Assembly: GCA_043799545.1 (NCBI GenBank)
Contig: JAZDNO010000006.1
Span: 64,001 to 128,000, forward strand
Direction of reading: 5' to 3'
Source: Methanobacteriota archaeon
GTDB taxonomy: Archaea; Thermoplasmatota; Thermoplasmata; SG8-5; DAIRED01
Length of the DNA stretch: 64,000 nucleotides
Part shown: piece by piece, positions 10,909 to 62,103 of the stretch
Numbering within the stretch: position 1 is the stretch's first letter
Layout: the number at the start of each line of letters is the position of its first letter
Translations under genes and position numbers: made by a program
Notes under the pieces: generated by a model
Databases searched by the model: none
What the model was told of the DNA's origin: nothing
Seen by the model: only the letters and a program-made list of their open reading frames with translations

Positions 10909-10970
10909 GCGGCACCAGGGGGATGAGACAGTCGCCGATTAAGAGCTTTGCGGAGGAAGCCTGCCAAATC

Positions 10971-11016
10971 AATTTGTTATATATTGTAATAATACTTTGT
11001 AATATTGTTTTTTATA
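10971..11016 (+). promoter_or_regulatory. AT-rich promoter/operator region of the hybrid hydrogenase operon
   Basis: TTGTWATA at 10974, 10984 and 10997 followed by TTTTTTATA, in an otherwise GC-rich genome. Confidence 0.5.
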
Positions 11017-11060
11017 CTCACTCTCGGATTTGCCGTTGGCTCGACCCAGGAGTTAAGTCC

Positions 11061-12782
11061 ATGAAGCCCAAGGTAGCGGTGTTCGACTTCGCAAGCTGCG
11101 AAGGCTGCGAACTGCAGATCGCGAATCTCGAGGAGCAGGTAATCGACCTAGTCGGCGCGGTCGACATAGTCTCCTTCAGGGAGGTCATGAAGGAGCACTC
11201 GGACGATTACGACATCGCGTTCATTGAGGGCTCGATAAACCGACCTCTGGACGAGGAGCGGTTGAAGAAGATTCGGTCTCGCGCGAAGGTCCTCATCGCC
11301 ATGGGCGACTGCGCCTGCACGGGCTGTGTCAACAAGCTGAGGAACCAGTGGACGGTCGAGGAGGTCAAGAAAGAGGTGTATCCAGACGCGGCGGCGCAGA
11401 TGAAGGGCAACGAGCTCTTCGACATCTTTCCGACGAAGGCCATCGACGAAGTCGTGAAGGTGGATTTCTACATCCGCGGCTGCCCGATTCGGAAGGAGCA
11501 GTTCATCTATTACGTCAACAGGTTCGCGACCATGCCCCCGAGGAAGAACATGAACCTGCGCTTCAAGATCACCGAAAGGGAGATGGAGTCCGACCCCCGC
11601 TCGGTAATCCACTACGACCCGCAGAAGTGCATTCTTTGTAGGCACTGCCAGATAATATGCAACGACGTTCTTGACGTGCACGCCATCGGCATATCGGAGA
11701 AGGGGAACGAATCCATCATCTCCACGCCTTTTGAGAAAGGGCTGGAGGCCAACAACTGCATCAAGTGCGGCCAATGCCTCGTCAATTGCCCGGTCGGAGC
11801 GTTTTCGGAGAGCGCGGGAGTCGAAAAGGCCAAGGCGCTCATCGAGGACCCGAAGAATTACGTCATCCTGGTCATAGACCCGATTGCGATGGCCTCGGCA
11901 ATGGAGGGGATGATGACGTCGGAGACGCAGCTGGGGCCGGTGATTAGGAGGACGATATCGGCGTTCAGGAAGCTCGGCGTCAAGAGGGTGCTCGATTTCA
12001 CAAACTTCACGTACCTCTCAATCGCGGCGCAGGGCGAGCACATCAGGAACCACCACGAGATGAGCTTCGCATCATGGTGTCCGAGCGCCAGTATTTTCGT
12101 GAAGAAGTTCTATCCGCAGTTCAAGAAGTACCTGCACCCAGAATTCGAACCAGTTAACATCATGGCAGACCAGCTGAGGGCCAAGTACGGCAAGAAGAAT
12201 CTGAAGATAGTGCTTGTGAGCCCATGCATCGTGCACAAGGGCAACGAAAGCATCGACGCAGTGCTGACCGCCAGGGAGCTGCCGAGGCTCCTGAAATCAT
12301 GCGAGCTCGACATCGATTTCTTCCCTGCCGAAGGGGTGGACTTCGACACCGAGTGCTCCATGACGACGACGTTCCTCAGCGGGGCCAGGAACGACCACAC
12401 TTACTCCGTGCAGATGCTTGAAGCTGCGTACTATGGCAAATTCAAGAACCTCGATTCGGCGCTCGACATCAAGACCATCGGCGACTACGCCCACGAACTG
12501 ACCTTCGACAGCGAGGAGGGCTTCTTCAACGCCCTCGTCATCGAAGACATAGCAAAGACCAGCAAGTACCTCGAGAAGGACATAAGGAAGTACAACATCG
12601 TCGAGCTTTACCCGTGCTACTGGGGGTGCGTCACCGGCGGCGGGCAGACGCTGACGACTTCGTTGGCTGTGCTGGAGCACAGGATGGCTTTGCTGAAGGA
12701 GTACAAGGGAACGATAAAAGACCATGGCAAATTCATAGCCCAGATGATTGCCGGGTACGAACAGTGCAAGAGGGGTGAGTAA
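11061..12782 (+). CDS. Hybrid hydrogenase subunit: [NiFe] small-subunit N-domain + 2x[4Fe-4S] + [FeFe] H-cluster-like domain
   Basis: SCEGC/EGS/GDCAC/RGCP (group 3 small subunit), CILCRHC..C and CIKCGQC..NCP ferredoxin, then ASWCP, SPCIVHK and ELYPCYWGCVTGGGQ (H-cluster P1-P3-like). Confidence 0.88.
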   Translation: MKPKVAVFDFASCEGCELQIANLEEQVIDLVGAVDIVSFREVMKEHSDDYDIAFIEGSINRPLDEERLKKIRSRAKVLIAMGDCACTGCVNKLRNQWTVEEVKKEVYPDAAAQMKGNELFDIFPTKAIDEVVKVDFYIRGCPIRKEQFIYYVNRFATMPPRKNMNLRFKITEREMESDPRSVIHYDPQKCILCRHCQIICNDVLDVHAIGISEKGNESIISTPFEKGLEANNCIKCGQCLVNCPVGAFSESAGVEKAKALIEDPKNYVILVIDPIAMASAMEGMMTSETQLGPVIRRTISAFRKLGVKRVLDFTNFTYLSIAAQGEHIRNHHEMSFASWCPSASIFVKKFYPQFKKYLHPEFEPVNIMADQLRAKYGKKNLKIVLVSPCIVHKGNESIDAVLTARELPRLLKSCELDIDFFPAEGVDFDTECSMTTTFLSGARNDHTYSVQMLEAAYYGKFKNLDSALDIKTIGDYAHELTFDSEEGFFNALVIEDIAKTSKYLEKDIRKYNIVELYPCYWGCVTGGGQTLTTSLAVLEHRMALLKEYKGTIKDHGKFIAQMIAGYEQCKRGE

Positions 12783-13256
12783 ATGGACGTCAAGGACAGG
12801 TTCGTAATCGACACGGTTCTGGAGAAGTACAAAGGGGTCCGGGACCCCGCCCTCATAATACTCCAGAATATCCAGGCCGTCCTCGGATACGTCGGGAAGG
12901 ATTACCTGGAGTACGTCGCCGAGAAGACCGATTACTCCCTCACGGAATTGTACGGCATAGTCACATTCTATCCGTCGTTCAGGCTGGAGCCACCGGGGAA
13001 GCACACAATCAAAGTCTGCCAGGGGACGGCCTGCCACGTCCGGGGCGGGGAGAAGGTGCTGAAGGCGGTGGAGGAGCTGCTGGAAATCAAGCCCGGCGGG
13101 ACGACCAAAGACCGGCTTTTCTCGCTGGAATCGGTCCGGTGCCTCGGCTGCTGCGGCCTCTCGCCAGTCATAATGATAGACAACGAAACTTACGGGCGGG
13201 TAAAACCCGCCAAGCTCAATGAAATCCTGACCAAATACGGGGAGGCGGGCGAATGA
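12783..13256 (+). CDS. NuoE/HydC-like [2Fe-2S] subunit
   Basis: TFYPSF, VCQGTACHVRG and VRCLGCCGLSP. Confidence 0.93.
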   Translation: MDVKDRFVIDTVLEKYKGVRDPALIILQNIQAVLGYVGKDYLEYVAEKTDYSLTELYGIVTFYPSFRLEPPGKHTIKVCQGTACHVRGGEKVLKAVEELLEIKPGGTTKDRLFSLESVRCLGCCGLSPVIMIDNETYGRVKPAKLNEILTKYGEAGE

Positions 13257-16200
13257 AGATAAAGAGGAAGTTCGACCTGGAGGACCTGGCCAAGGCGGGT
13301 TTGGCCGACATGAACAGCGAGAACCCGCAGCTGATTTTCGGTCTGGCGACTTGCGGAATCGCGGCCGGCGGGATGCCGCTCAAGGAATACGCCGAGGAAT
13401 ACCTGTCGGTTAAAAACCCCAACGCCGAGATAGTCTCAGTGGGCTGCATCGGCATGTGCCACGCGGAACCGCTGGTGGACGTCAAGCTGCCGGGGAGGCC
13501 GAGGGTCACGTACCACAATATGACGGTTGAGAAGTTGAAGCGGGTCATGGACGAGCATCTTCTCGGGGGAAAGCCGGCCAAGGACCTGGCGCTGGCCCAG
13601 CTATCGGAGGAGATGTCCGAGTGCGTCGACGGCGTCCTGAAGTTCGACTCGAAATACGAGGGGATTCCGACCTATCGGGAGCTGCCCTTCTTCACCAAAC
13701 AGAAGAGGATTGTCCTGAGAAACTGCGGGATAGTCAATCCCGAAAGCCTGAAGGAGTACATTGCCAGGGGCGGCTACAAGAGCGCGTTCGCGATGCTTCA
13801 GGAGATGAAGCCCGAAGAGGTCATCGGCATCGTGAAGAAATCCGGCATAAGGGGCAGGGGCGGGGCGGGTTTCCCGACGGGGCTGAAGTGGGAGCTGTGC
13901 GCCAAAGCGCCTGGGGACGTGAAGTACATCATATGCAACGCGGACGAGGGCGACCCTGGCGCGTACATGGACCGGGCCGTGCTCGAAGGGGACCCGCACA
14001 GCGTCATCGAGGGGATGATAATCGGCGCCTACGCCATGGGCGCGTCAGAGGGCTTCGTCTACGTTAGGACGGAGTATCCGCTCGCCATCAAGCATTTGAA
14101 GCTGGCATTGGCCCAGGCTGAGAGCCACGGGCTCCTCGGCGAGAGAATTCTGGGAACGGACTTCAACTTCCAGATACACATCCGGGAAGGGGCGGGCGTG
14201 TTCGTCTGCGGCGAGGAGACGGCGCTCATGCATTCGATAGAAGGCAAGCGCGGGGAGCCGAGGCCCAGGCCGCCGTTCCCGGCGTCCAGCGGCCTGTGGG
14301 GCAAGCCCACCAACATCAACAATGTCGAGACGTGGGCCAACATCCCGCTCATCATGCAGAGGGGCGGGGCCTGGTTCGCGAAAATCGGGACCGAGAAGAG
14401 CACAGGGACGAAAGTATTCTCCCTTGTCGGCAAGATAAACCGGGCTGGCCTGGTGGAGGTGCCCGCGGGCATACCCCTGAAGGACATAGTGCACGAGATG
14501 GGGGGCGGTTGCCCCGACGGGAGGAAGGTCAAGGCCGTGCAGACGGGCGGGCCGTCCGGCGGTTGCATACCCGTCGAGCATCTGGACGTCACGGTGGATT
14601 ACGAGAACCTGAAGGCGCTGGGCTCCATCGTTGGGTCCGGTGGAATGGTCGTAATGGACGAGGACACGTGCATGGTCGACGTGGCTAGGTACTTCCTCTC
14701 TTTCACATCCGAAGAATCTTGCGGGAAATGCACTCCCTGCCGCGTCGGAACCAAGAGGATGCTGGAGCTGCTCCAGAAGATATGCCACGGCCAAGGCACT
14801 CCAGAGGATGTGCAGGTATTGGAGAACCTGTCCATCCAGGTGAGGGATGCGTCGCTTTGCGCGCTCGGCGGCACCGCGCCGAACCCGGTCCTCACCACTC
14901 TGAAATACTTCAGGCACGAGTACATGTCCCACGTCGAGGACGGCAAGTGCAAGGCGAGCGTGTGCGCGGCCATGTTCAAGTCGCCGTGCCAGAACACCTG
15001 CCCGGCCGGCACGAACGTCCCGGGATACATCCAGCTGATAAACGAGGGCAAGCTCGTTGAGGCCTACCAGGTGAACCTCGAGAACAACCCGTTCCCCTCG
15101 GTTTGCGGGCGCGTTTGCGAGCACCCATGCGAGGCAAGGTGCCAGCGCGGCCAGCTGGACGAGTCGATTGCCATCAGGGACCTTAAGAGGGTATGCTCCG
15201 ACGGCTTCGCCAAGTCCAAGAAGGCGCCGAAGGTTTCGAAGCTCAAACCCGTGGGGAAGAAGGTCGCCATAGTCGGCGGCGGGCCGTCGGGCATGTCGGC
15301 GGCGTACTTCCTCGCCCGCCTGGGCTACTTGCCGACCGTGTTCGAATCGGCCGAGAGGGCGGGGGGCTGGATGCGCTACGGGATACCGCGCTACAGGCTG
15401 CCGCACGAGGTGATCGACCGGGAGATAAAGAACATCGTCGACCTGGGCGTGGAATTGAAGACCGGCGTCGCCGTAGGCAGGGACGTGACTTTGCCCGAAC
15501 TCAAGAAGAAGTATGACGCGGTGTACCTAGCCATCGGGGCACAGCTCGATAAAAAGCTCGGGCTGGAGGGCGAGGACCTGCCCGGCGTGTTGCCAGGGCT
15601 CCAGGTGTTGAGGGATGTCAACGGCGGCAAGAAGGTCGACATCGGAAGGCACACGCTCATCATCGGTGGGGGCAACGTCGCTGTGGACGTGGCAAGAACC
15701 GCCGTGCGTGTGGGCGCCAAGGTGACGATTTGCTACAGGCGCGAGGAGCAGGACATGCCCGCCTACCGTGAAGAGGTAGAGCAGTGCAAGCAGGAGGGCG
15801 TCACTTACCACTTCCTCGTGGCGCCGGAGAAGCTAATCGTCCAGAAGGGAAGGGTCGTCGGAGCAGTGTTCAGGAAGAACTCGATTGGGGAGTTCAACAA
15901 GCACGGCCGCAGGGCGCCGGTGCCGACGGAAGAGACGCTGGAGGTCAAGGCCGACAGCATCATCGTGGCCATCGGGCAGGACGTCGACGAAGGCTTCGCA
16001 AAGGGATTCGACGGCGCGATTCTGGGCAAGGGCAAGCTCGTCGAGACCAAGAAAGGCCTGGCGACTAGCGACCCTAAGGTATTCGCCGGAGGGGACGCGG
16101 TCCTGGGGCCGGCGAGCGTCATCGAGGCCATAGGCCACGGAAAGCAGGCCGCGAGGAGCATCGACGCGATGCTCAGCGGGAAAGACAGGTTCCCCGAGCT

Positions 16201-16402
16201 GGAAGAGCACAACTTCGCGGGCTATTCCATGGCGGAGCCCAAGAACGAGCAGGAGATGCCGCGCCAGCATTCGGCGGAGGCCGAGGCTGCCAAGCGGATG
16301 TGCGGCTTCGACGAGGTGGTGATGTGCCTGGACGCGAAATGCGCCAAGAAAGAATCATCGAGATGTCTGAGGTGTGACCTCAGCGCAGTGGGGGATGATT
16401 AG
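13253..16402 (+). CDS. NuoF/HydB-like diaphorase fused to a GltD-like FAD/NAD(P)H domain
   Basis: GRGGAGFPTG, CNADEGDPG, CGEETAL and ESCGKCTPC, then CQNTCPAG, CGRVCEHPCE, GGGPSG, GGGNVAVD and AGGDAV. Confidence 0.93.
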   Translation: MKIKRKFDLEDLAKAGLADMNSENPQLIFGLATCGIAAGGMPLKEYAEEYLSVKNPNAEIVSVGCIGMCHAEPLVDVKLPGRPRVTYHNMTVEKLKRVMDEHLLGGKPAKDLALAQLSEEMSECVDGVLKFDSKYEGIPTYRELPFFTKQKRIVLRNCGIVNPESLKEYIARGGYKSAFAMLQEMKPEEVIGIVKKSGIRGRGGAGFPTGLKWELCAKAPGDVKYIICNADEGDPGAYMDRAVLEGDPHSVIEGMIIGAYAMGASEGFVYVRTEYPLAIKHLKLALAQAESHGLLGERILGTDFNFQIHIREGAGVFVCGEETALMHSIEGKRGEPRPRPPFPASSGLWGKPTNINNVETWANIPLIMQRGGAWFAKIGTEKSTGTKVFSLVGKINRAGLVEVPAGIPLKDIVHEMGGGCPDGRKVKAVQTGGPSGGCIPVEHLDVTVDYENLKALGSIVGSGGMVVMDEDTCMVDVARYFLSFTSEESCGKCTPCRVGTKRMLELLQKICHGQGTPEDVQVLENLSIQVRDASLCALGGTAPNPVLTTLKYFRHEYMSHVEDGKCKASVCAAMFKSPCQNTCPAGTNVPGYIQLINEGKLVEAYQVNLENNPFPSVCGRVCEHPCEARCQRGQLDESIAIRDLKRVCSDGFAKSKKAPKVSKLKPVGKKVAIVGGGPSGMSAAYFLARLGYLPTVFESAERAGGWMRYGIPRYRLPHEVIDREIKNIVDLGVELKTGVAVGRDVTLPELKKKYDAVYLAIGAQLDKKLGLEGEDLPGVLPGLQVLRDVNGGKKVDIGRHTLIIGGGNVAVDVARTAVRVGAKVTICYRREEQDMPAYREEVEQCKQEGVTYHFLVAPEKLIVQKGRVVGAVFRKNSIGEFNKHGRRAPVPTEETLEVKADSIIVAIGQDVDEGFAKGFDGAILGKGKLVETKKGLATSDPKVFAGGDAVLGPASVIEAIGHGKQAARSIDAMLSGKDRFPELEEHNFAGYSMAEPKNEQEMPRQHSAEAEAAKRMCGFDEVVMCLDAKCAKKESSRCLRCDLSAVGDD

Positions 16403-17083
16403 ATGCCTTCAGGCGTGATGATTGAGATTGTAGTTGACGGCAAGAAGATACATTGCCAGCCTAACCAGACGGTGCTGGAAGTCGCCAAGGCGAACAACAT
16501 CAGCATCCCGACGATGTGCCTGAACCCTCTGTTTCCGGGGCACAAGGTGGGTGCGTGCAGGATGTGCCTCGTGGAGATAACGGGGGGCGGGAGGCCTGGG
16601 CTGCAACCGAGCTGCACGCTGCCTGTCTCGTCGGGTCTGGCCATGTCCACATGCAGCGATGCAGTGTACAACGCCAGGCGGACTGTGGTGGAGCTGATGC
16701 TGACGGAGCACGTGCAGAAATGCCGCGACTGCCCCATCAGCGGTGACTGCAACTTCGCCAGGCTGTGCAGGGACTACGACGTCAACGGCGTCCCGGTCTG
16801 CGCGGAATGCCCCAACCAGAGGGAGGGCTGCCTGCTCAAGCGCGGAGTCCTCTGCGTCGGGCCGATAACGTACGCCAACTGCAACGCCTACTGCACCCGG
16901 CAGGGGTACAGATGCGAGGGTTGCCACTCCGTGATGGTGCACGACGACATACTGAAGTTCGGCATCAGGGCATTCAAGGACGCTGGCTTCAAGGCCAAGG
17001 ACATAGTGGAGGCAGCGAAAGTCTTCTCGTACGACAGCGTCAAAAGGGTCGAGAAGGCGCTGAAAGAGGAGGGGATGAAATGA
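16403..17083 (+). CDS. [2Fe-2S] + His-ligated [4Fe-4S] (NuoG/HydA N-type) domain fused to [NiFe] small-subunit C-terminal domain
   Basis: IPTMC, GACRMCLVE, QPSC and HVQKCRDC..GDC, then PVCAEC..GCL..GVLCVGPIT.ANCNAYC..G..CEGC. Confidence 0.85.
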   Translation: MPSGVMIEIVVDGKKIHCQPNQTVLEVAKANNISIPTMCLNPLFPGHKVGACRMCLVEITGGGRPGLQPSCTLPVSSGLAMSTCSDAVYNARRTVVELMLTEHVQKCRDCPISGDCNFARLCRDYDVNGVPVCAECPNQREGCLLKRGVLCVGPITYANCNAYCTRQGYRCEGCHSVMVHDDILKFGIRAFKDAGFKAKDIVEAAKVFSYDSVKRVEKALKEEGMK

Positions 17084-18375
17084 GCGAAAAGAACGTCCGC
17101 GTTGAGCATCTGACAAGGGTGGAGGGGCATGGCAACATCATCCTCAACTCCAAGAACGGCAAGTTGGAGAAGGTGGTCTGGGAGGTCTCGGAGGCTCCGA
17201 GGCTTTTCGAGGCCTTCGTGAGGGGGAAGCCCTATAGCCAGCTCGCGCAAATCACATCGAGGATATGCGGGATATGCTCCATCGGTCACACGATGGCATC
17301 TCTGAAGGCGACGGAGGCGGCGATGGGGATTGAAATATCCGAGCAGAGCGAGAAGCTCAGGCGGCTCGCGATGCACGGGGAGAACCTCCAGAGCCACGTT
17401 CTTCACGTGGGATACCTCGTCGCTCCAGACCTGTTCGGCGTGGGCAGCGTCGTTCCGCTAGTCGGAACCCACACCGACACCGTCCTGGCGATAATCAAAC
17501 TGCACAAGACGGCGAACGAGTTCTCGGACATGATATGCGGCCGGACGACGCACCCGACCAACCTGGTTCCAGGCGGGCTGTGGAAAACGCCCTCGCCACT
17601 GAAGCTTAGGAGCATGAGGCAGAAGCTCCTGGAGATGGTGCCTACGGCGAATGCTGTCGCCGAGGTGGTGCTGGCAAATGCGGGAGCCCTGCCGAATTTC
17701 ACGAGGGAGACGGAATTCATCGGCTTGGTGTCCAAGGACGAGTACGCGCTCTACGACGGCGACGTCGGCTCGACGGACGGCGGAACCTTCCCCGTGTCGT
17801 CGTACAGGACGATAGTCAACGAGTTCGTAGTACCCCAGTCCACCGCGAAGTACACGAAGCACAAGCGCGACTCTTTCATGGTCGGAGCCCTGGCCAGGTA
17901 CAACCTCAACTCCAAGAAGTTGTCTCCGATGGCGAAGGATTGGGCGGACAGGTTCGGCCTCAAACCGGTATGCCACAACCCGTTCATGAACAACGTGGCC
18001 CAGCTGGTCGAGGTGTTCAATTCCGTCGAGGATTCGATCGCGATAATCGACAGCCTGCTCGGCAAGTACGCCGACGAGCCCAGGCCAAAGATTAAACCGA
18101 AGGCCGGGAGCGGCGTTGGGGCGGTGGAGGTTCCGCGCGGTATACTCTTCCACGACTACACGTACGATGCCAACGGCCTGTGCACCAAGGCGAACTGCGT
18201 CATACCGACGAACCAGAACCACAACAACATCCAAAAGGACATGGAGGCGTTCGCGCCCACGCTCCTCGACAGGCCGGAAAAGGAGATCGAGCTAAACCTC
18301 GAGATGCTCGTGCGCGCCTACGACCCGTGCATCTCCTGCTCGACGCATTATTTAAAGGTCAAATTCGTGCGTTGA
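17080..18375 (+). CDS. [NiFe]-hydrogenase large subunit, group 3b-like (copy 1, hybrid operon)
   Basis: RVEGHG, L1 RICGICSIGH, EVPRG and L2 DPCISCSTH plus C-terminal extension. Confidence 0.95.
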   Translation: MSEKNVRVEHLTRVEGHGNIILNSKNGKLEKVVWEVSEAPRLFEAFVRGKPYSQLAQITSRICGICSIGHTMASLKATEAAMGIEISEQSEKLRRLAMHGENLQSHVLHVGYLVAPDLFGVGSVVPLVGTHTDTVLAIIKLHKTANEFSDMICGRTTHPTNLVPGGLWKTPSPLKLRSMRQKLLEMVPTANAVAEVVLANAGALPNFTRETEFIGLVSKDEYALYDGDVGSTDGGTFPVSSYRTIVNEFVVPQSTAKYTKHKRDSFMVGALARYNLNSKKLSPMAKDWADRFGLKPVCHNPFMNNVAQLVEVFNSVEDSIAIIDSLLGKYADEPRPKIKPKAGSGVGAVEVPRGILFHDYTYDANGLCTKANCVIPTNQNHNNIQKDMEAFAPTLLDRPEKEIELNLEMLVRAYDPCISCSTHYLKVKFVR

Positions 18376-18592: not shown

Positions 18593-20521
18593 TTGAAGAT
18601 AATACAAAAGGATGATTTCAAAGGGTTTGTGAACGCGCTGATAAAGGACAGCGGCATGGACGTTGAAGGCGTGAAGGCGAAGGGCCCGAAGTTCGCCTTC
18701 GGGCCGCTGGACAGCGCCGACGAGCTCAGGCTCGATTACGACGTCACGCTCCTGCCCCCGAAAAAGTATTTCCTGCCTCAGTACGAACAGTTGATGACCT
18801 TCGATTTGTCGAGCCCGTTCTCTGTCACCAGAGCCGAATACCCGCGCCGCAAGCTCATCATCGGCGTTCATCCCTACGATATTGTCGCGATTAGGCAGAT
18901 GGATAGCTATTTCCTCGACACGGATGTATCGGCCAGCTACCTCAGGAGGAAGAAGAACATACTCATCATCGGCTGCGATGTCATGCGCGTGCAGGACAAG
19001 GCCTTCTTCGGCTCGATGGGCACGGGGATGGTGCATTCTGGATACGACCTCTTCCTGACCGACCTGGGCGAGAAGGTGGCCATCGAGGTCGGAACTGAAG
19101 CGGGAAGCGACCTGCTCAGGTTCGCGACGAATGTGAGGGAGGCCACCCCGGTCGAGGTCCAGAAGGTCAAGGCGATGAGGGAGGCCACCGCGCTGAAGGC
19201 GACGCGCGGCCTGATGGTGAAGCCGAATGGCTGGCACGACCTGCTGGAGAAGGACTACGAGAGCGAGGTCTGGAAGAAGCAATCCGACAAATGCCTGGCT
19301 TGCGGCACGTGCACGCTGGTCTGCCCGACGTGCTTCTGCTACGACGTCAAGGACGACATACACCTGACTTTAAAGACAGGCGAACGGTCTAGGACGTGGG
19401 ACGGTTGCTTGCTCCGCCGGTTCACCGAGATAGGGTCCGGGGAGATATTCAGGGACGACATCCTCGACAGGTACAGGCACAGGATTCACAGGAAGGGTCG
19501 GTACCTCCCCGACCGATTGGGGTTCGTAGCCTGCGTGGGATGCGGTCGCTGCTCGAGCCAGTGCGTCCCGGACATTGCAGACCCGGTCAACCTAATTAAC
19601 ATGCTGTTCGAGGCGTCGCCGCACCTGGTAACCGATTCGCTTTCCGACCCGCACACCGTGAAGACAGACTTCACGAATCTCCCCGAGGGCGACACGGCCA
19701 AGATGCTCCACATGCCTGTGCCGGCAACCATCAATAGGGTTGAGAAGCTCACGGCGAAGGAGACTCTGTTCGAGATATCTCTCGACGACGGGAAGGCGCT
19801 CGGTCACGTGCCCGGCCAGTTCGTCGAGGTCTCAATCGCCGGCATGGGAGAATCCCCGATATCCGTTTCGTCAGCGCCGGGAACCAAGACCTTCGAGCTG
19901 GTAGTCAGGAAGGTCGGAGACGTCACGAGCAAGCTCCACACCATGAAGGCGGGAGATAAAATAGGAATCCGCGGGCCGTTCGGAAAGGGCTTCGACACCG
20001 AGGGTTTGAAGGGGAAGAACCTGCTCTTCATCGGGGCTGGCCTGGGCATGGTCCCGATGCGCTCCTTCATCAACCACGTGCTCAACAACCGCAAGGACTA
20101 CGGCGAGGTGACGATACTCTATGGATGCAAGGAACCGTGCGAGATGCTCTTCGCCAAGGAAATAGGGTCATGGGGGAAGCGCGATGACATACAGCACAAG
20201 AGGGCTGTCGACAAGTGCCCCGAAGGAGCGTGCTGGGACGGCGAGATAGGCGTCATAACGACGTTGCTGCCGAAGGTCAAATTCGATCCCAAGACGACGG
20301 TCGCCATCGTCGTCGGACCTCCGATCGTCTACAAATTCGTGAACAGGGACCTGCTCAAGCTCGGTGTGCCTGAGGAGAACATCGTCGTCTCCCTCGAAAG
20401 GCGCATGAAGTGCGGCGTCGGCAAGTGCGGGCACTGCCAGATGAACGGCATCTACGTATGCAAGGAAGGGCCAGTGTTCAATCTAAAGGACCTTAAGGGC
20501 GTGCAGGAGGCGTTCGAATGA
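18593..20521 (+). CDS. Group 3b (sulfhydrogenase-type) beta+gamma fusion: [4Fe-4S] subunit fused to FAD/NAD(P) subunit
   Basis: TTG start after GGAGGTG; CLACGTCTLVCPTCFC and CVGCGRC, then PGQF, GPFGKGF, GAGLG and ERRMKCGVGKCGHC. Confidence 0.92.
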   Translation: MKIIQKDDFKGFVNALIKDSGMDVEGVKAKGPKFAFGPLDSADELRLDYDVTLLPPKKYFLPQYEQLMTFDLSSPFSVTRAEYPRRKLIIGVHPYDIVAIRQMDSYFLDTDVSASYLRRKKNILIIGCDVMRVQDKAFFGSMGTGMVHSGYDLFLTDLGEKVAIEVGTEAGSDLLRFATNVREATPVEVQKVKAMREATALKATRGLMVKPNGWHDLLEKDYESEVWKKQSDKCLACGTCTLVCPTCFCYDVKDDIHLTLKTGERSRTWDGCLLRRFTEIGSGEIFRDDILDRYRHRIHRKGRYLPDRLGFVACVGCGRCSSQCVPDIADPVNLINMLFEASPHLVTDSLSDPHTVKTDFTNLPEGDTAKMLHMPVPATINRVEKLTAKETLFEISLDDGKALGHVPGQFVEVSIAGMGESPISVSSAPGTKTFELVVRKVGDVTSKLHTMKAGDKIGIRGPFGKGFDTEGLKGKNLLFIGAGLGMVPMRSFINHVLNNRKDYGEVTILYGCKEPCEMLFAKEIGSWGKRDDIQHKRAVDKCPEGACWDGEIGVITTLLPKVKFDPKTTVAIVVGPPIVYKFVNRDLLKLGVPEENIVVSLERRMKCGVGKCGHCQMNGIYVCKEGPVFNLKDLKGVQEAFE

Positions 20522-21294
20522 CCAAACCGCGAGTTGCGTTCTTCGACTTCTCGAGCTGCGAGGGCTGCCAGCTCCAGGTCGTCAACCTGGAGGAGGCCAT
20601 ACTGGATGTCGTCGGGCTCGTCGACATAGTCGAATTCAGGGAGGCCATGAAAGAATCCTCGACAGAATACGACATTGCAATTATCGAGGGGTCCATCGCA
20701 CGGCCGATGGACGTCGAGAGGATAAAGAAGATTAGGGAGAGGGCAAAGGTGCTAATCGCACTCGGGGCATGCGCCCACCTCGGCGGAGTACAGAGGATGG
20801 GCAACAAATGGACCGCTGAGGAGAACAAGGCAGAAGTCTATGCGAGACACCCCGGCTCCGAGGTGACAAAGGGCGATGCCAACCCCTATTTCGACCAGCC
20901 CAGGCACAGGGCCGTGGACGAGATTGTCAAAGTGGACTACACGATTCCGGGATGCCCCATAGACTCGAACGAGTTTGCGAAGGTTCTGATTGCTCTCCTG
21001 ACGGGCAAGAAGCCGCCTATTCCAGACTACCCAGTTTGCGTGGAGTGCAAGAAGAACGAGAACATCTGCCTCTTCACCATCGGGCAGTTCTGCATGGGGC
21101 CGATAGCTAGGGCCGGATGCGGCGCGATATGCCCGACCCACGGCGGCGAGTGCGAGGCGTGCCGAGGGTACGTGGACCACCCGCACACGCAAGCCCAGAC
21201 GGAAGTGCTAAAGAAGCACGGGCTGACGGTGGACGAAATCATGAACAGGAAGACAATGTACACTCACCGCTACGTCGAGGAGGGGAAACAATGA
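20518..21294 (+). CDS. Group 3b [NiFe]-hydrogenase small (delta) subunit, intact
   Basis: SSCEGC, EGS, GACA, PGCP, PVCVEC and CMGPIARAGCGAICP..CEAC. Confidence 0.94.
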   Translation: MTKPRVAFFDFSSCEGCQLQVVNLEEAILDVVGLVDIVEFREAMKESSTEYDIAIIEGSIARPMDVERIKKIRERAKVLIALGACAHLGGVQRMGNKWTAEENKAEVYARHPGSEVTKGDANPYFDQPRHRAVDEIVKVDYTIPGCPIDSNEFAKVLIALLTGKKPPIPDYPVCVECKKNENICLFTIGQFCMGPIARAGCGAICPTHGGECEACRGYVDHPHTQAQTEVLKKHGLTVDEIMNRKTMYTHRYVEEGKQ

Positions 21295-22589
21295 GCAACG
21301 TCAACATCAACGTCGAGCACCTGACAAGGGTCGAGGGCCACGGCAACATTGTGCTGAACGCGAAGGACGGCAAAATCGAGAAGGTGCAGTGGCAGGTTTC
21401 CGAGGCCCCGCGCTTCTTCGAATCGTTCGTCAGGGGGAGGCCATACAACGAGCTCAGCCACATCACCTCTAGGATTTGCGGCATCTGCTCCATCGGGCAT
21501 TCGCTCGCCTCCCTAAAGGCCACAGAAGCCGCAATGGGCATCCATACTTCGGAGCAGACCGAGATTCTCAGGCGGCTCGCGATACACGCGGAGAACATTC
21601 AGAGCCACGTTCTTCATGTGGGCTACCTGGTCGCTCCCGACTTGCTGGGGGCGCCGAGTGTGATTCCTCTTGCGGGCACGCACACTGGCGCAGTTCTGAA
21701 AATCGTCGGGTTGCACCGCTTGGCTAACGAGTACTCCAACATGATTTGCGGAAGGACAGTCCACCCGATCAGCCTCATCCCGGGCGGCTTCAGTCACATC
21801 CCTTCCGAGAAGCAGCTTAAGGGACTGAGGAAGAAGATTGCAGATGCGGTTCCTGATGTCGTCGCAGTCGCGGAGATAGTTCTGGCAAACGCGCACAAGC
21901 TACCGAACTTCTCTCGCGAAACGGAGTTCATAGCCCTCACGGCAGACGACGAATATGCCATCTACGACGGGGACATGGGCTCGACGGACGGCGGTCGCTG
22001 GCCGGTCGACAAATACCTTGAAATTACCAACGAATTCGTGGTCCCGCATTCGACGGCAAAGTTCACTAGGCACAAGCGCGAATCGTACATGGTCGGGGCG
22101 CTCGCACGCTTCAACCTCAACTACGACAAGCTGACCCCGGGGGCAAAGGAATGGGCCGGGAAATTCGGCCTGAAGCCAGTCAACCACAACCCGTTCATGA
22201 ACAGCGTCGCGCAGCTCGTGGAAACCGTGCACAGCTTCGAGGACTCGATAGCGCAAATCGACAAACTCATCGGGATGGGAATCGACGTCAACGAGAGGCC
22301 GAAGTTCGCAGTCAAGGCCGGTCATGGCGTGGGTGCGGTGGACGTGCCGAGGGGAATCCTCTTCCATGATTACACATACAACGACAAGGGCATTTGCACT
22401 AAAGCCAACTGCATCATCCCCACCAACCAGAACCACAACAACATAAACCAGGACTTCAAAGCGTTCGCGCCGACGATAATCGACAAGCCAGAGAAGGAAA
22501 TCGAGCTTCTGATGGAAATGCTGGTTCGCGCGTACGACCCGTGCATCTCCTGCTCGACGCACTACCTTGACGTGAAATTCGTGCGTTGA
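21291..22589 (+). CDS. [NiFe]-hydrogenase large (alpha) subunit, group 3b (copy 2)
   Basis: RVEGHG, RICGICSIGH, DVPRG and DPCISCSTHYLDVKFVR. Confidence 0.95.
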   Translation: MSNVNINVEHLTRVEGHGNIVLNAKDGKIEKVQWQVSEAPRFFESFVRGRPYNELSHITSRICGICSIGHSLASLKATEAAMGIHTSEQTEILRRLAIHAENIQSHVLHVGYLVAPDLLGAPSVIPLAGTHTGAVLKIVGLHRLANEYSNMICGRTVHPISLIPGGFSHIPSEKQLKGLRKKIADAVPDVVAVAEIVLANAHKLPNFSRETEFIALTADDEYAIYDGDMGSTDGGRWPVDKYLEITNEFVVPHSTAKFTRHKRESYMVGALARFNLNYDKLTPGAKEWAGKFGLKPVNHNPFMNSVAQLVETVHSFEDSIAQIDKLIGMGIDVNERPKFAVKAGHGVGAVDVPRGILFHDYTYNDKGICTKANCIIPTNQNHNNINQDFKAFAPTIIDKPEKEIELLMEMLVRAYDPCISCSTHYLDVKFVR

Positions 22590-22710
22590 TTGGATGTATC
22601 GCATTTCGAGAAAGCCGAAGCAGGAACCCAGGAGCGTCGGCCAGGGCACTAATAAACGTCGACAGGTTAAGGAAAGCCCGGGATTGCGACAATCGGTCAT
22701 CCGTGGCAAG

Positions 22711-23181
22711 ATGCCAAAAGCCGCCGTCATAGGAATAGGCAACCCCCTGATGTGCGACGACGGTGCGGGAATCGAGGTTCTGGACGCCCTTCGGAAGATG
22801 ACCTTGCCCGCAGGCGTGGACATACTGGACTGCGGGACCGGAGGGATGGCTCTCTTGCATGCGCTGGCGGATTATCGCGCCGTCGCAATCGTGGACGCGG
22901 TCGATTTCGGGGGCAGGCCTGGAGAAGTGAAATCTTTCTCCCCGGACGATGCCGTCTCCATAAAGGAGCTCAAGCGCCTGTCGCTCCACGAAGGGGACGC
23001 CTTCGAGACAATCGTTCTGGCAAGAAGGCTGGGCCAGTGCCCAGAGAATATAGTCATCTGCGCAATCCAGCCCAAGCGGATCGAGCCCAGGCACGGGATG
23101 ACCCGCGACGTGCGCTCGAAGCTGCCAGAACTCGCCTCTCAGGCGCGCCTGGCTCTCGAGCGGCTTTTAGCCAGCCGTTGA
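22711..23181 (+). CDS. Hydrogenase maturation endopeptidase
   Basis: GIGNPLMCDDGAG, DCGTGG, IVDAV and SLHE motifs. Confidence 0.92.
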   Translation: MPKAAVIGIGNPLMCDDGAGIEVLDALRKMTLPAGVDILDCGTGGMALLHALADYRAVAIVDAVDFGGRPGEVKSFSPDDAVSIKELKRLSLHEGDAFETIVLARRLGQCPENIVICAIQPKRIEPRHGMTRDVRSKLPELASQARLALERLLASR

Positions 23182-30548: not shown

Positions 30549-33500
30549 TTAAATCCCCTTCTTCAGCTTTCTCGCCAGCCCCGGCGATATGCCCTGTATG
30601 CGCGTAAGCTCTGCCATCTCCGCGCGGTGGATGTCGTCCTCCGAGCAGAATCCGGCTTCCCATAGGTCGTTGGCCTTCGAGTAGCCGATGCCCGGCACGG
30701 ACATGAGTTTCTGGACGAACGATTCCCGGTCTCGCTTAGCGACCTTTTTCGTCCCCTTCTTCTTTGCTGCTCCCCCATCGCCAGATATCGCGGACTCCAT
30801 CTCCCTTGCCAGGGCGTCTTCCTTGTCCTTGTATCTCAACCGCTCGCCGCAAGCGTGGCATTTCTTCGCACCGATGTCGTTCGTCTCGCCGCATTCCTGG
30901 CATGCCACGCCGGAACGTTTCCTCTCTTTCCTGGCCGCCGCCGGTGCGGGCGTCTTTCTCTCCGGAGGCTGCTCCTGGGCCTGCTTGCGAGCGGGTTTCG
31001 AAGCATCCTTCTCCGGGACGACCTCTCTCTCAACGCCTTCAATGTTCTTCATTGCGTCTGAGAAATCCGGAGCGAGCGAGAGCGCCTCCTCGAACGAGGC
31101 GATTGCGTCAGCTGTCTTGCCGGCGCGTTTCAATGCGATACCTCTGATGTTCCACAGTTCGGCGCTGCGCTCGTCGAGCTTCAACCCGTCGTCCGCTGCC
31201 CGAACCGCGCCTTTCAGGTCGTCCGATTCGAGCATAACGAACGATTTTATTGCGTAAAGCTCGGGAGATTTCACCGCTGCCAGCCCATCCCCGATGAGTT
31301 CCAGCGATTCTCCAGCCCTTCCCTGCCTCGCCAAAACGGAGGCCTTTCCCGCCAGTGCCGCGAGTGCGTCCGGACGCGCGTCCAGCGCCCGGTCGTAACT
31401 TTTAATCGCCTGGTCAAGCTCCCCGCGCGATGCGAACACGGCGCCGCGGTCGCACCAGGCTTCCCAGTGCCCCGGGTCGCTCTGCAAGGCCTTGTCCAGG
31501 CACATCAGGGCGTCGTCCAATTTTCCCGAAAGGTATAGGGTATTTCCGACCTTGTTCCAGAGGTCCGCGCTGGATTTGGCAAGCTCGGCCGCTTCTTCCA
31601 GCGCCTCCGAAGCCTTGCCCTTGCGCCCCCAAAAATCGAGCAGGTCCGCTTTCAGCAGGAGCAGCGGGACGGAGATGTCCGTCTTGGCGGTAATGGCGCT
31701 GAGCGCCTCCGATGCGGCGGCATAACGGCTTGAACCGAGCAGAGCTTCGGTCCTCCCCAGCGCAGCTGCGGTGTCGTCCGGGTCAAGGTCCAGGGCATCC
31801 TCGAAAAACGACGCGGCTTCCTCGTAATGCCCGAGCGCGTAGGCTGCCTCGCCTTGCATCCGCGGCAGACGGGACTCGCTCCTCAGAAGCATGGCCTCGC
31901 CGAACCGCCCTATCGCGTCCTCGAACATCCCGAGGCGCATGCAGAGCTCGCCGAGGCCCACCAACTCGTCGAATTCCAGCACCTCGCGCTCCTCCGCCCT
32001 GGCATCCTCGATGCGCTCTATTTCCTCAGGCTCGCCAGCCGGCAAATCCGGCTCAAGCTCGGGCTCTTCCGTCTCCCTGAGGTCGGAGCCGCATCCCATG
32101 CAGAAGTTATCGCGCTCCCCGACATCGCCCCCGCACTCCGAGCATGTGAACAGGACAGTATCTTCACTCTCGGACTCGCCTGAACCCGGGGCGATGCCCG
32201 CGGGCGGCACCTCCGAAACTGACGGGACTGGCTCGGTCATTGAGACCGCTTCGAAAGGTGCAGGCTCGGGAACTGGTAACGGTGCCTGTACTGGAACCTC
32301 GACGGGTTTAACGGGGACAGAGCGCTCGGCCTGCTGCTGGCGCTCCTTCGCTTCTCGCTGCTGCCGCAGCCTCTCCTCCTGCTCTTGGCGCAGGGCTCTC
32401 TCGGTCTTTTCCCGGAGCTCGATGGCGACATCCCAGCCGGGCTTCATGTCAAGAGCCAGCTCAAGCGAGTCGAGCGCAGCCTTGTACACGCCTGCGGCAA
32501 CCAGGGCGCTCGCCTTCTGAGCATGCATCTCAGGCGTTTTGAACTTCTCGAGCACGCGGTCGTACGACTTCACGGCCTCCAGATGTCTGCCAAGGTCCTG
32601 GAGGAGCAGCCCGCGGTTCAGCCACGTGTCCAGGTTGTCGCCGCGCAGCTCGAGGGCCTTGTTGAAACTCGCCAGCGCCTCGTCGCTCCTGCCGAGGTGC
32701 TTGAGGGCGACGCCCCGGTTCGAGAGCGCGCGCTCGTTCTTCGGGTTTGACCGCAAAGCCTGGTCGAAGCAAAGCACGGCCTCCTCGTCCTTCCCCAGCT
32801 CGAGGAGAGTGGCCCCCTTGTTGTTCAACGCTTTTTCGTACGTCTTGTTCAGCTCCAGCGCCTTATCGTAGCAGGCGAGCTCGTCGTCGTGCTTGCCCTT
32901 CGAGTACAAAACGGCCCCGAGGTTGAACCAGCCCTCGTCCGAACCCGGGTTCCTGCGCAGCGCCTCCTCGTACGCTTCGACGGCCTTGTCGTTCTGCCCG
33001 AGCGCCGCCTGGCAGTTGCCGAGCATCGCGTGCGGGACGTCGTAGTCCGGCTTCAGCGCCGCCGCCTTGTCGAAGTACTCGATGGCCTTGCGGTAGTTGC
33101 CAGCCTCGTAGAAATCGTAGCCCCATTTCATTATCGAGTCCAGCTGCCCCATGCTCGGCAGCTGCCTGTTCCCGTCCTTCTCGAGGAACGATTCCGTGGA
33201 GCGCCTGTCGAGCTCTTCTGTGAGCCCGAACTTGTCCAGCAGCTGGCCGAACCTCTCGGTGTCTGCGACCGCGACGTCGAACTGGGCGGCGTAGTTTTCC
33301 GCGTCCTTTGAAACGTCCCCGGCAGTGATGTAGATGCCCCTCGGCACGCCGGCCTTGCGCATCCTCTCCACGGACTTCTGTATGTCGTGCGGCCTGGCCG
33401 AATCGAGCCCGCGGGTCGCGAAGACGAGGTACTTGTCGCCGTTTGCGATTAGGTGCGCCTCCATCTCCATCGAGTCCCCCGAGGTTCGGAAACCTTTTGT

Positions 33501-33602
33501 CTCCAGCCCCATCCCCTTGAGAACCCTCTCCACGAACGAGCGGAACTCCGGCTCGCTGAGCTCGCGCAGCTCCTTTGCCAGCCTGGCCGGGTCGTGCGTC
33601 AT
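30549..33602 (-). CDS. Multidomain protein: Mrr-like restriction-endonuclease fold + TPR arrays + two Zn ribbons + HhH
   Basis: N-terminal EFRSFVERVLKGMG..RGIYIT..AENYA..VAD pattern; many TPRs; CSECG..CMGCG and CQECG..CHACG; VPGIG..IQGISPGLA. Confidence 0.8.
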   Translation of the reverse strand: MTHDPARLAKELRELSEPEFRSFVERVLKGMGLETKGFRTSGDSMEMEAHLIANGDKYLVFATRGLDSARPHDIQKSVERMRKAGVPRGIYITAGDVSKDAENYAAQFDVAVADTERFGQLLDKFGLTEELDRRSTESFLEKDGNRQLPSMGQLDSIMKWGYDFYEAGNYRKAIEYFDKAAALKPDYDVPHAMLGNCQAALGQNDKAVEAYEEALRRNPGSDEGWFNLGAVLYSKGKHDDELACYDKALELNKTYEKALNNKGATLLELGKDEEAVLCFDQALRSNPKNERALSNRGVALKHLGRSDEALASFNKALELRGDNLDTWLNRGLLLQDLGRHLEAVKSYDRVLEKFKTPEMHAQKASALVAAGVYKAALDSLELALDMKPGWDVAIELREKTERALRQEQEERLRQQREAKERQQQAERSVPVKPVEVPVQAPLPVPEPAPFEAVSMTEPVPSVSEVPPAGIAPGSGESESEDTVLFTCSECGGDVGERDNFCMGCGSDLRETEEPELEPDLPAGEPEEIERIEDARAEEREVLEFDELVGLGELCMRLGMFEDAIGRFGEAMLLRSESRLPRMQGEAAYALGHYEEAASFFEDALDLDPDDTAAALGRTEALLGSSRYAAASEALSAITAKTDISVPLLLLKADLLDFWGRKGKASEALEEAAELAKSSADLWNKVGNTLYLSGKLDDALMCLDKALQSDPGHWEAWCDRGAVFASRGELDQAIKSYDRALDARPDALAALAGKASVLARQGRAGESLELIGDGLAAVKSPELYAIKSFVMLESDDLKGAVRAADDGLKLDERSAELWNIRGIALKRAGKTADAIASFEEALSLAPDFSDAMKNIEGVEREVVPEKDASKPARKQAQEQPPERKTPAPAAARKERKRSGVACQECGETNDIGAKKCHACGERLRYKDKEDALAREMESAISGDGGAAKKKGTKKVAKRDRESFVQKLMSVPGIGYSKANDLWEAGFCSEDDIHRAEMAELTRIQGISPGLARKLKKGI

Positions 33603-60498: not shown

Positions 60499-61287
60499 AT
60501 GGGCGAATTGGTATTTGTCGGTTTAGGTCTCGGTCCGGGAGGCGTCAGCCAAGCAGGGCTGGAGGAATTGAAGGGCTGCGGCAAGGTCTTCGCAGAGACC
60601 TACACCGCGCCAGTCGAAAAAGGCATGCTTCCGGAGCTGGCAAAGCTCATAGGGAAGGACATCGCGCTTCTGGGGAGGAAGGATGTCGAGGACGGGAAGC
60701 TCATTCTGATGGAGGCGAGCCGGGGCAGGTGCAGCATCCTGGTCCCGGGCGACCCGATGGTGGCGACGACCCACGTAGACCTGAGGCTCAGGGCTGTGGA
60801 AAGGGGCATCGTGACCAAAATAATCCACGCGGCGAGCATAGGCACGGCCGCCGCTGGCCTTCTGGGGCTCCAGAGCTACAAGTTCGGCCGGACCACCACG
60901 CTGCCTTTCTGGAAACCAGGCTACGAACCGACCAGCCCTTACGACGTCGTCGAGGCCAATCGCAATGAAGGACTGCACACTCTGGTGCTTCTCGACATCG
61001 ACGCAGAAGGCGGCGCGGCCATGACTGCGACCCAAGGCATGGCGCAACTGATTGCATTGGAGGCAAAGCTCGGCCGTGGAGTATTCAAAGCCGACACTCT
61101 CGCATGCGTGGTGGCCCGTGCCGGCCACGACGACGTTCTCGTGAAAGCGGGTGAAATAACCGTTCTCGCAAGAGAGGATTTCGGGCGGCCACCGCACTGC
61201 ATCGTCATCCCGGGCAAGCTGCATTTCATGGAATCGGGGGCGCTGGTCGCGCTCGCGGGAGCGCCGAAAACGATATTGAAGGATTAA
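60499..61287 (+). CDS. dph5: Diphthine synthase
   Basis: LVFVGLG, ETYT, PGDPMVATTH, GLQSYKFGRTTT, GLHTLVLLD and FG.PPHCIVIPG.LHFME. Confidence 0.93.
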   Translation: MGELVFVGLGLGPGGVSQAGLEELKGCGKVFAETYTAPVEKGMLPELAKLIGKDIALLGRKDVEDGKLILMEASRGRCSILVPGDPMVATTHVDLRLRAVERGIVTKIIHAASIGTAAAGLLGLQSYKFGRTTTLPFWKPGYEPTSPYDVVEANRNEGLHTLVLLDIDAEGGAAMTATQGMAQLIALEAKLGRGVFKADTLACVVARAGHDDVLVKAGEITVLAREDFGRPPHCIVIPGKLHFMESGALVALAGAPKTILKD

Positions 61288-61934
61288 ATCCCCAGCGCCT
61301 GTTTCAACTCATCCATTCCGACGCCGTGCTTCGCATCCGTGAGAATAACCGGAGCCCTCGAATTGAGGTTTTTAGCATCTGACACAAGGACCTGCGGGTC
61401 CACTTCGACCGCGCCAGCCAGGTCAATCTTGTTTATCACGATGAGGTCGGCGATTGTGAAAATCAACGGGTGCTTCCTCACCATGTCGTCTCCTTCAGTC
61501 ACGGAGATTACAACGACGCGCTTGTCGGTGCCGAGGGGGAAATCCCCCGGGCATACGAGGTTGCCCACGTTCTCGATGAAGAGGATGTCCAGCTCTTCCA
61601 ACTTTAGGTGCTCCAGGGCGTGGTCGACCATGTGCGCGTCTAGGTGGCATTCTTTCCCGGTATTGACGTTCTCGGCTGTCGCACCCCTATTGACAAAACG
61701 CCTGTAATCGTCATCCCCCGCCACATCGCCAGCGATGCACCCCACCCTTTTCCCGTTTGCTTTCAACGCCTCTATCATCTTCTCGATGATGAGCGTCTTG
61801 CCAGAGCCTATTGAGCCGACGAAATCAAACGACTTGATTCCTTTGGATTTCAGGCGGACGTGGTTGTCGTCTGCGATGCGCAAATTCGCACCTAGTACGT
61901 TGGCCCCGAGATCCACGTCCACGACCTTGTGCAG
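61284..61934 (-). CDS. hypB: Hydrogenase nickel-insertion GTPase HypB (probable CTG start)
   Basis: GSIGSGKT, TGKECHLD, ENVGNLVCP, SVTEGDD and NKIDL; CTG at 61934 follows GGGGTGA. Confidence 0.93.
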   Translation of the reverse strand: MHKVVDVDLGANVLGANLRIADDNHVRLKSKGIKSFDFVGSIGSGKTLIIEKMIEALKANGKRVGCIAGDVAGDDDYRRFVNRGATAENVNTGKECHLDAHMVDHALEHLKLEELDILFIENVGNLVCPGDFPLGTDKRVVVISVTEGDDMVRKHPLIFTIADLIVINKIDLAGAVEVDPQVLVSDAKNLNSRAPVILTDAKHGVGMDELKQALGI

Positions 61935-61938
61935 GCGC

Positions 61939-62103
61939 TCACCCCTTTCGCTTGGGGATGCTGCAGATGGCATACTCGTCCCCGTCCAAAAACACATCCA
62001 GATCGGGATGCTTCTCCTGGATCTGCCTGATGTTCTCCATGACCTCCGAGATGGTCTTCGTGCCGTCCCGGCTGAGCTTCACATGCACCCTCTTTTCGGT
62101 CAG
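61939..62103 (-). CDS. 54-aa hypothetical protein upstream of hypB (not in ORF track)
   Basis: Manual translation (M)TEKRVHVKLSRDGTKTISEVMENIRQIQEKHPDLDVFLDGDEYAICSIPKRKG*; CTG at 62103 after GGGGTG, or GTG at 62112. Confidence 0.65.
   Translation of the reverse strand: MTEKRVHVKLSRDGTKTISEVMENIRQIQEKHPDLDVFLDGDEYAICSIPKRKG

Follow-up and report, generated by a model that had tools for sequence, protein, structure and literature searches.

Background

Can an [FeFe]-hydrogenase domain that keeps the cysteine ligands of its H-cluster, and replaces the residues around the di-iron site, still be a site of H2 chemistry? This question is raised by a gene of a Thermoplasmatota archaeon (assembly GCA_043799545.1) in a 64,000-nucleotide stretch of contig JAZDNO010000006.1 (positions 64,001 to 128,000), hereafter the window, whose numbering is used throughout. 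The gene (11061..12782, plus strand) encodes HydA-HyhS, a fusion subunit of 573 amino acids. We are highly confident that this subunit, with its H-domain at 11892-12641, belongs to a group F [FeFe]/group 3f [NiFe] hybrid hydrogenase, a five-subunit complex of the HydABC type, which is predicted to be electron-bifurcating. An earlier note on this DNA proposed that the domain may hold only a [4Fe-4S] cluster, or act as a slow, sensory or non-H2 site, with H2 chemistry at the [NiFe] centre.

Group F/3f hybrids were published by Greening et al. 2024 (Cell 187:3357; PMC11216029), with the complex of Thermoplasmatota UBA147 sp002496385 (HydA-HyhS, HydB, HydC, HydD and HyhL) as the archetype. Among known complexes, they alone appear to unite both major hydrogenase types, and the need for two H2 sites is unexplained. 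The question is sharpened by three features described below: an invariant Trp/Asp/Tyr pocket, a consistent absence of HydEFG that extends to bacterial carriers, and a fast-evolving H-domain. Either these enzymes carry a di-iron cofactor from a biosynthetic route yet to be described, or their so-called [FeFe] half is a relic with a cubane alone, which would make them [NiFe] bifurcating hydrogenases in truth; in both cases the way in which archaeal [FeFe] hydrogenases are counted in surveys of H2 cycling would change.

The system is thus already known, and the window gene is an ordinary member of its family. The word tryptophan occurs nowhere in the text of PMC11216029, where the Trp/Asp/Tyr pocket is not discussed, although residue logos for groups A-F are given in its Figure S4B. 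A literature search found no later papers on the group F pocket. Our additions to that text are modest: residue invariance is tabulated, the survey of maturases takes in bacterial carriers, and the domains are compared for evolutionary rate.

The H-domain of a group F hybrid hydrogenase

The subunit lies in an open reading frame spanning 10923-12782 (plus strand), within which the ATG at 11061 (MKPKVAVFDF) is most likely the start, because 573-residue homologues align over their full length from that Met. Oxidored_q6, Fer4 and Fe_hyd_lg_C domains of Pfam all fall within this one frame; in the numbering of the trimmed protein, PF01058 covers residues 13-152 and PF02906 covers residues 278-527. 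The first domain (11097..11516, plus strand; PF01058, E 4e-25) is the N-terminal, proximal-cluster half of a group 3 [NiFe] small subunit, which also matches positions 5-153 of the NCBIfam sulfhydrogenase delta model and the PDB chains 9e1j and 7t2r_E. It is followed by a ferredoxin-like domain with two [4Fe-4S] clusters of the HydA F-cluster type (11625..11801, plus strand; Fer4_7), alignable to the F-domain of 8a6t, 7p5h and CpI, and then by the [FeFe]-hydrogenase H-domain itself (11892..12641, plus strand; PF02906, Fe_hyd_lg_C, E 1.9e-23), the sole Fe_hyd_lg_C domain of the whole genome.

HydA of the electron-bifurcating FeFe-HydABC complexes of T. kivui (8a6t), T. maritima (7p5h) and A. 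woodii (7q4v), together with the monomeric CpI (4xdc), gave the best sequence and fold matches of the ferredoxin and H-domains. An AlphaFold2 model built with 78 homologues has a predicted local distance difference test score (pLDDT) of about 95 across the H-domain, and the top Foldseek matches of the modelled H-domain were HydABC HydA and CpI; the predicted fold is confidently that of HydA. Compared with canonical HydA, the N-terminal [2Fe-2S]/His-cluster part lies on a separate subunit here, and the [NiFe] small-subunit half is fused on.

Assignment to group F is based on the small subunit and H-domain sharing one polypeptide, on contiguous HydC, HydB, HydD and HyhL genes, and on the H-cluster Cys. 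The fusion architecture, five-gene order, four Cys ligands and absence of HydEFG are all shared with the published hybrids, from which the window gene shows no essential difference. Kinship to UBA147 was judged by pairwise identity, which is 78% over 572 residues to its subunit (contig DAJR01000051.1). The nearest public sequence, from a Thermoplasmatota metagenome-assembled genome (MAG), is 89% identical, and the five-gene order is common to about 30 related loci.

A remodelled H-cluster pocket

Residues were paired by phmmer (HMMER) alignment to solved structures and are numbered as in C. pasteurianum CpI; the H-domain matches were T. kivui HydA1 (8a6t, E 5e-40), T. maritima HydA (7p5h) and CpI (E ~1e-26). 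Motif P1 (ASWCP; 12069..12083, plus strand) reads FASWCPSA in the translation, with A at 12069, S at 12072, W at 12075, C at 12078 and P at 12081, and has Trp for the proton-relay Cys (C299) next to the retained cluster Cys (C300). P2 (SPCIVHK; 12219..12239, plus strand) reads VSPCIVHKGNE, with S at 12219 and K at 12237-12239; here Ser stands for M353, His is at K358, and Lys comes one residue later. P3 (ELYPCYWGCVTGGG; 12603..12644, plus strand), a stretch that appears in the translation as ELYPCYWGCVTGGGQ (12603-12644), has Tyr for M497 and Pro for A498, and retains C499, C503 and GGG. To these is added an Asp (11877..11879, plus strand) at the position of CpI A230, which is Asp in all 79 relatives described below and Ala in canonical controls. 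All four cluster Cys are present, the equivalents of C300, C355, C499 and C503 being at 12078, 12225, 12615 and 12627, and they are invariant across the family. The three motifs and four Cys had thus been read exactly in the earlier note, which placed them within 12060-12650, and both phmmer and the Pfam match (E 1.9e-23) put them at homologous positions.

Where the canonical group A motifs are TSCCPxW, MPCxxKxxE and ExMxCxxGCxxGGGQP, the window gene has ASWCPSA, SPCIVHKGNE and ELYPCYWGCVTGGGQT. The changes relative to CpI are C299W, M353S, K358H, M497Y, A230D, S232I, I268F and A272T, with E279Q, S319H, Q325V and A498P in addition. Of the canonical proton path C299-E279-S319-E282-R286, the first three positions carry W, Q and H, E282 falls inside a four-residue gap of the alignment, and R286 is without an aligned Arg. 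On this alignment, no position of the canonical proton path is conserved in HydA-HyhS, and the second shell is largely altered. HydA-HyhS shares its cubane ligands and GGG loop with bifurcating HydA and CpI, but TSCCP, MPCxxK, ExMxC, the Glu/Ser/Glu/Arg proton path and HydEFG maturation, all of which go with the canonical enzymes, are missing here. The canonical controls, HydA of a Nealsonbacteria MAG and group-B-like proteins, retain APS/APA, SCCP, (M/G)PC..KK and E.MxC in the same alignment, which therefore validates the mapping of the columns.

The earlier note gives His at the Lys position of P2. The His does pair with K358, but a Lys directly follows it, as it does in 75 of the 79 relatives, and a plain statement that the Lys is lost was rejected. 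On the alignment, what looks like a loss may really be a shift by one residue.

Pocket bulk was estimated as summed residue volumes over ten positions, whose choice we base on what we take to be the pocket of CpI; the measure is crude and ignores backbone shifts. The sums were 1476-1526 Å3 in the long clade of the family and 1625-1656 Å3 in the short clade, against 1157-1219 Å3 in canonical and sensory-type controls.

Conservation and selection across the family

A word-indexed protein search yielded about 80 full-length relatives of 36-89% identity, and counts are over 79 clusters. The family consists of a clade of about 570 amino acids, which holds the window subunit, and a clade of about 500 amino acids. 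Trp at C299 and Ser or Thr at M353 are found in 79 of 79; M497 is Tyr or Phe in 73, A498 is Pro in 78, and the position after K358 (K359) is Lys in 75. K358 itself is His, Tyr or Gln in the long clade and Leu or Met in the short clade, whose members share a further invariant Trp, at CpI Q325. Nearly all invariant columns of the H-domain fall in the pocket motifs. Remoter fused proteins from a 50%-cluster library retain SWCP, TWCP or SFCP plus the Asp.

The ratio of nonsynonymous to synonymous substitution rates (dN/dS) of the H-domain against its closest relative is 0.075; the domain is therefore under purifying selection and not decaying. At the same time it is the fastest-evolving part of the complex, with 24% identity between the clades versus 69% for the HyhS small-subunit domain (the large subunit is about 76% identical in several of the same loci), and its short-clade version lacks about 75 residues. 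Judged from these sequences, the odd pocket (W299, D230, S353, Y497 and His-Lys at K358/K359) is a conserved family signature and not local decay. The same substitutions form the invariant signature of the published hybrids, as the comparison with group F suggested in the earlier note bears out. That note was right that the canonical second shell and Cys relay are gone and that HydEFG is absent from the window, but the changes it described are not local to this gene; they mark a family under purifying selection.

Several observations on the wider family were made. The short clade lacks query residues 373-378, 430-440, 459-465, 474-498 and 554-573, and its H-domains are mostly missed by Pfam Fe_hyd_lg_C. 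A fused relative with a canonical SCCP pocket, which would be a "missing link", was sought, and none was found in the Trp-bearing family. The remote protein P0121 has IIPCCYSA at P1, in a weakly aligned region, and belongs to another operon type (L088:2951-8464; relatives P0120-P0131) consisting of HydC, HydB without the GltD module, HydD, HyhL and then a 487-residue fusion of small-subunit and H-like domains, with a GAF protein and HycI upstream. Relatives of P0121 can have a P1 without any Cys. Complete hybrid operons with a short-clade subunit occur in MAGs labelled Balneolales/Balneolaceae, Cyclonatronaceae, Gammaproteobacteria and Gemmatimonadales (L011, L012, L014, L016, L017, L019, L021, L024 and L031, the last on a contig of 667 kb). 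Hybrid hydrogenases were described as exclusively archaeal in PMC11216029, whereas the operon is found here also in MAGs labelled bacterial.

Absence of the di-iron maturases

None of hydE, hydF and hydG lies within the window, as the earlier note had reported. The search that it suggested, of the whole 2.06-Mb genome (94% complete), gave no match to HydE or HydG and, for HydF, only GTPase matches below threshold. Among 30 other operon-carrying genomes, whose completeness was not reported and which took in MAGs labelled Balneolales, Cyclonatronaceae, Gammaproteobacteria and Gemmatimonadales, HydE and HydG scored above the cut-off in one. This sole positive carrier also encodes a canonical HydA (302 bits), and therefore, in this census, the hybrid H-domain never has HydE and HydG on its own account. 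Related loci were searched for conserved non-Hyp neighbours of the operon that might act as an alternative maturase, and none was found; the only recurrent non-structural neighbours are the [NiFe] protease HycI (13 loci) and HypF (8 loci).

The genes for [NiFe] maturation that the earlier note had listed are indeed in the window. A maturation protease of the HycI/HybD family (22594..23181, plus strand; PF01750, TIGR00072) follows a group 3b operon, and hypB, for the nickel-insertion GTPase, is at 61284..61997 on the minus strand (TIGR00073, 252.8 bits, above the cut-off, with the genome match at 125293-125931; cobW/HypB domain). With the large subunit intact and these genes at hand, the [NiFe] centre is a credible main site, as that note had it, and it is the secure H2 site under every reading considered below.

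What the H-domain may hold

The reading that we favour, tentatively and at somewhat short of even odds, is that the H-domain is a genuine H-cluster site of non-canonical form, which probably handles H2 more slowly and in an auxiliary role, with the [NiFe] centre doing the main H2 chemistry. The four Cys would hold the cubane, and the remodelled pocket would still admit a di-iron subsite, as the pocket of a relative does in vitro; cells would have to assemble this subsite without the aid of HydEFG. Lacking the Cys relay and the Glu/Ser/Arg chain, the site would receive its protons by another route, for which the invariant Asp at A230 and, in the long clade, the His at the S319 and K358 positions are candidate groups. 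The near-invariant Lys after the K358 position could bind the distal cyanide. The H-domain would then be the slower, auxiliary H2 site, a "redox valve", and the [NiFe] centre, matured by Hyp and HycI, would be the main one. Fast canonical catalysis at the H-domain is unlikely.

Part of the support is biochemical. Two group F HydA-HyhS fusions from Thermoplasmata SG8-5, Th1 and Th2, were tested in PMC11216029, and the lysate with Th1 gave H2 at 5% of the CrHydA1 level, only after addition of [2Fe]adt, while the empty-vector blank was inactive. From the invariance of the family (Trp, or Phe in one member), the active Th1 almost certainly carries the Trp. Turnover by Th1 with the synthetic cofactor is hard to reconcile with a permanently plugged pocket. 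In addition, the architecture and operon match group F, and none of the 79 clusters departs from W299, D230 and S/T353.

Other evidence weighs against a di-iron site. Th2 was nearly inactive, neither fusion could be purified for spectroscopy, and no Fourier-transform infrared (FTIR) spectra were obtained; no FTIR or electron paramagnetic resonance data of a group F H-cluster are on record (PMC11216029). HydE and HydG are absent here and in 29 of the 30 operon-carrying genomes, bacterial MAGs included, and just HycI and HypF, with no conserved candidate maturase, adjoin the operon. Each residue with a known role in tuning or supplying the di-iron site is replaced, mostly by a bulkier one (about 1500 Å3 versus 1157-1219 Å3), and the H-domain evolves fastest (24% identity between clades versus 69% for the HyhS domain). 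High H2 activity and normal FTIR signals after [2Fe]adt loading had been named in the earlier note as the outcome that would tell against its interpretation; in the relatives this outcome is partly realized, by the 5% activity of Th1, with little from the other fusion and no FTIR.

Much of this evidence can be turned to the closest rival, in which a [4Fe-4S] cluster, the dead end of an electron branch, is all that the H-like domain carries in the cell; the domain would be kept for folding or assembly, all H2 chemistry being at the [NiFe] centre. We regard this as a serious possibility, a step less probable than an atypical H-cluster site. The 29 carriers without HydE and HydG, and linked maturation genes solely of the [NiFe] type, are what such a relic would leave. 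The replacement of all second-shell residues brings a net gain in volume of about 280-340 Å3 in the long clade and about 430-500 Å3 in the short clade, with its second invariant Trp at Q325; the fast evolution of the H-domain, its loss of about 75 residues in the short clade, and remoter fused forms that seem to be without even the P1 Cys point the same way. Nar1 (NARFL), the analogue named in the earlier note, is a eukaryotic cytosolic Fe-S assembly factor that has the H-domain fold with a cubane and no di-iron subsite. No Nar1 sequence or structure turned up in our sequence and fold searches, whose top matches were all bacterial HydA; HydA-HyhS itself comes from an archaeon and is encoded in a hydrogenase operon.

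A precedent among solved structures is the NiFe-HydABCSL complex of Acetomicrobium mobile (7t2r/7t30; Feng et al. 2022, PMC8880783), a Bfu-type bifurcating [NiFe] hydrogenase in which, as here, a small subunit with one cluster links a bifurcating HydABC-type module to a group 3 [NiFe] large subunit. The HydB/HydC flavin module, the group 3 large subunit and the one-cluster small subunit of that complex all have counterparts in the window, and 7t2r_E matches HydA-HyhS residues 2-154 (E 1e-18). In A. mobile HydA the H-cluster motif is fully lost, the C-terminal domain is NuoG-like, and a terminal [4Fe-4S] cluster, A5, occupies the H-cluster position (PMC8880783; PMC9304861), whereas HydA-HyhS retains an H-domain with four Cys, fused to the small-subunit half. 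Were the group F domain a cubane-only relic, the group would be an evolutionary intermediate between FeFe-HydABC and NiFe-HydABCSL. However, the [2Fe]adt-dependent H2 production by Th1 implies an open, competent pocket in at least one family member, and the invariant polar Asp230 and Lys359 are not obviously needed for a plug. In its strict form, the cubane-only reading is disfavoured.

It is unlikely, though some features suggest it, that the H-like domain is a regulatory site, at which a bound cofactor would sense H2 or redox state and so adjust the bifurcating complex, as has been proposed for HydS of groups C and D. In those putative sensors (TmHydS, TamHydS) the relay Cys and both pocket Met are likewise lost, as in TamHydS with C299A, M353S and M497L, and an alternative proton route has been proposed (PMC11803613). 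Unlike HydA-HyhS, they bind an H-cluster made by HydEFG and carry PAS or C-terminal cluster domains. Their substitutions are also small or similar-sized residues (Ala, Ser, Leu; P0099 is an example) and not Trp, Tyr or Phe; the pocket residues of the sensors stay small, whereas the hybrid family enlarges them. The window subunit is without a signalling domain, and the activity of Th1, 5% of CrHydA1, looks high for a sensor. A Planctomycetota MAG does encode a hybrid subunit with N-terminal response-regulator (receiver) and HATPase domains on the same chain (L085:8001-10610, P0064; also P0080), which would fit a sensory role, but these are extra domains added to an otherwise complete catalytic operon. 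The fused subunit is still the first in a HydC-HydB-HydD-HyhL-HycI operon, downstream of several two-component genes, and this version may be a self-regulating variant.

Less probable still is a new cubane-linked catalytic cluster, for which the pocket, with its invariant Asp, Trp and Lys, would receive an Fe-CO/CN fragment from the Hyp machinery instead of the di-iron unit of HydEFG. The idea comes up because Hyp is the only system for an organometallic cofactor that always co-occurs with the hybrid operons, to which it is sometimes syntenic (HypF, HycI). That the domain is a degenerating pseudo-domain, or a sequencing or assembly artefact of this one genome, can be dismissed, since its departure from textbook motifs is all that suggests local decay of any kind and this is ruled out by the same residues in 79 independent clusters, the dN/dS of 0.075, an open reading frame and a confident fold prediction.

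The hybrid operon and other genes of the window

The four genes after that of HydA-HyhS, all on the plus strand, complete the hybrid complex. HydC (12783..13256; PF01257, E 6e-47) is a NuoE-like [2Fe-2S] subunit of thioredoxin-like type, and HydB (13253..16402) is a diaphorase in which a NuoF module is fused to a GltD-like module (Complex1_51K, NADH_4Fe-4S, Fer4_20 and Pyr_redox_2). HydD (16403..17083; Fer2_4, NADH-G_4Fe-4S_3) is a conduit subunit with a front end of the HydA/NuoG type, carrying a [2Fe-2S] and a His-[4Fe-4S] cluster; its C-terminal part corresponds to the second half of a [NiFe] small subunit (positions 164-250 of the NCBIfam sulfhydrogenase delta model). HyhL (17080..18375; PF00374) is a group 3 [NiFe] large subunit whose metal-binding motifs are intact, RICGICSIGH and a DPCISCSTH with an eight-residue tail after it.

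The [NiFe] small subunit is thus split, with the proximal-cluster half (11061-11516) fused to the H-domain protein and the medial/distal-cluster half (16403-17083) placed behind the HydA-type [2Fe-2S]/His-cluster module, an arrangement that amounts to a reciprocal domain exchange. The hybrid operon is followed by a second hydrogenase operon, of group 3b (18593-22589).

Elsewhere in the window, two adjacent genes on the minus strand (30549-33647 and 33599-36343) encode giant tetratricopeptide-repeat proteins of 1032 and 914 amino acids, the larger of which carries a restriction endonuclease domain of the Mrr type at its N terminus and a helix-hairpin-helix at its C terminus. Beside them, a minus-strand open reading frame of 311 amino acids (36377-37312) matches only the tubulin/FtsZ GTPase domain, in part and weakly (E 7e-10).

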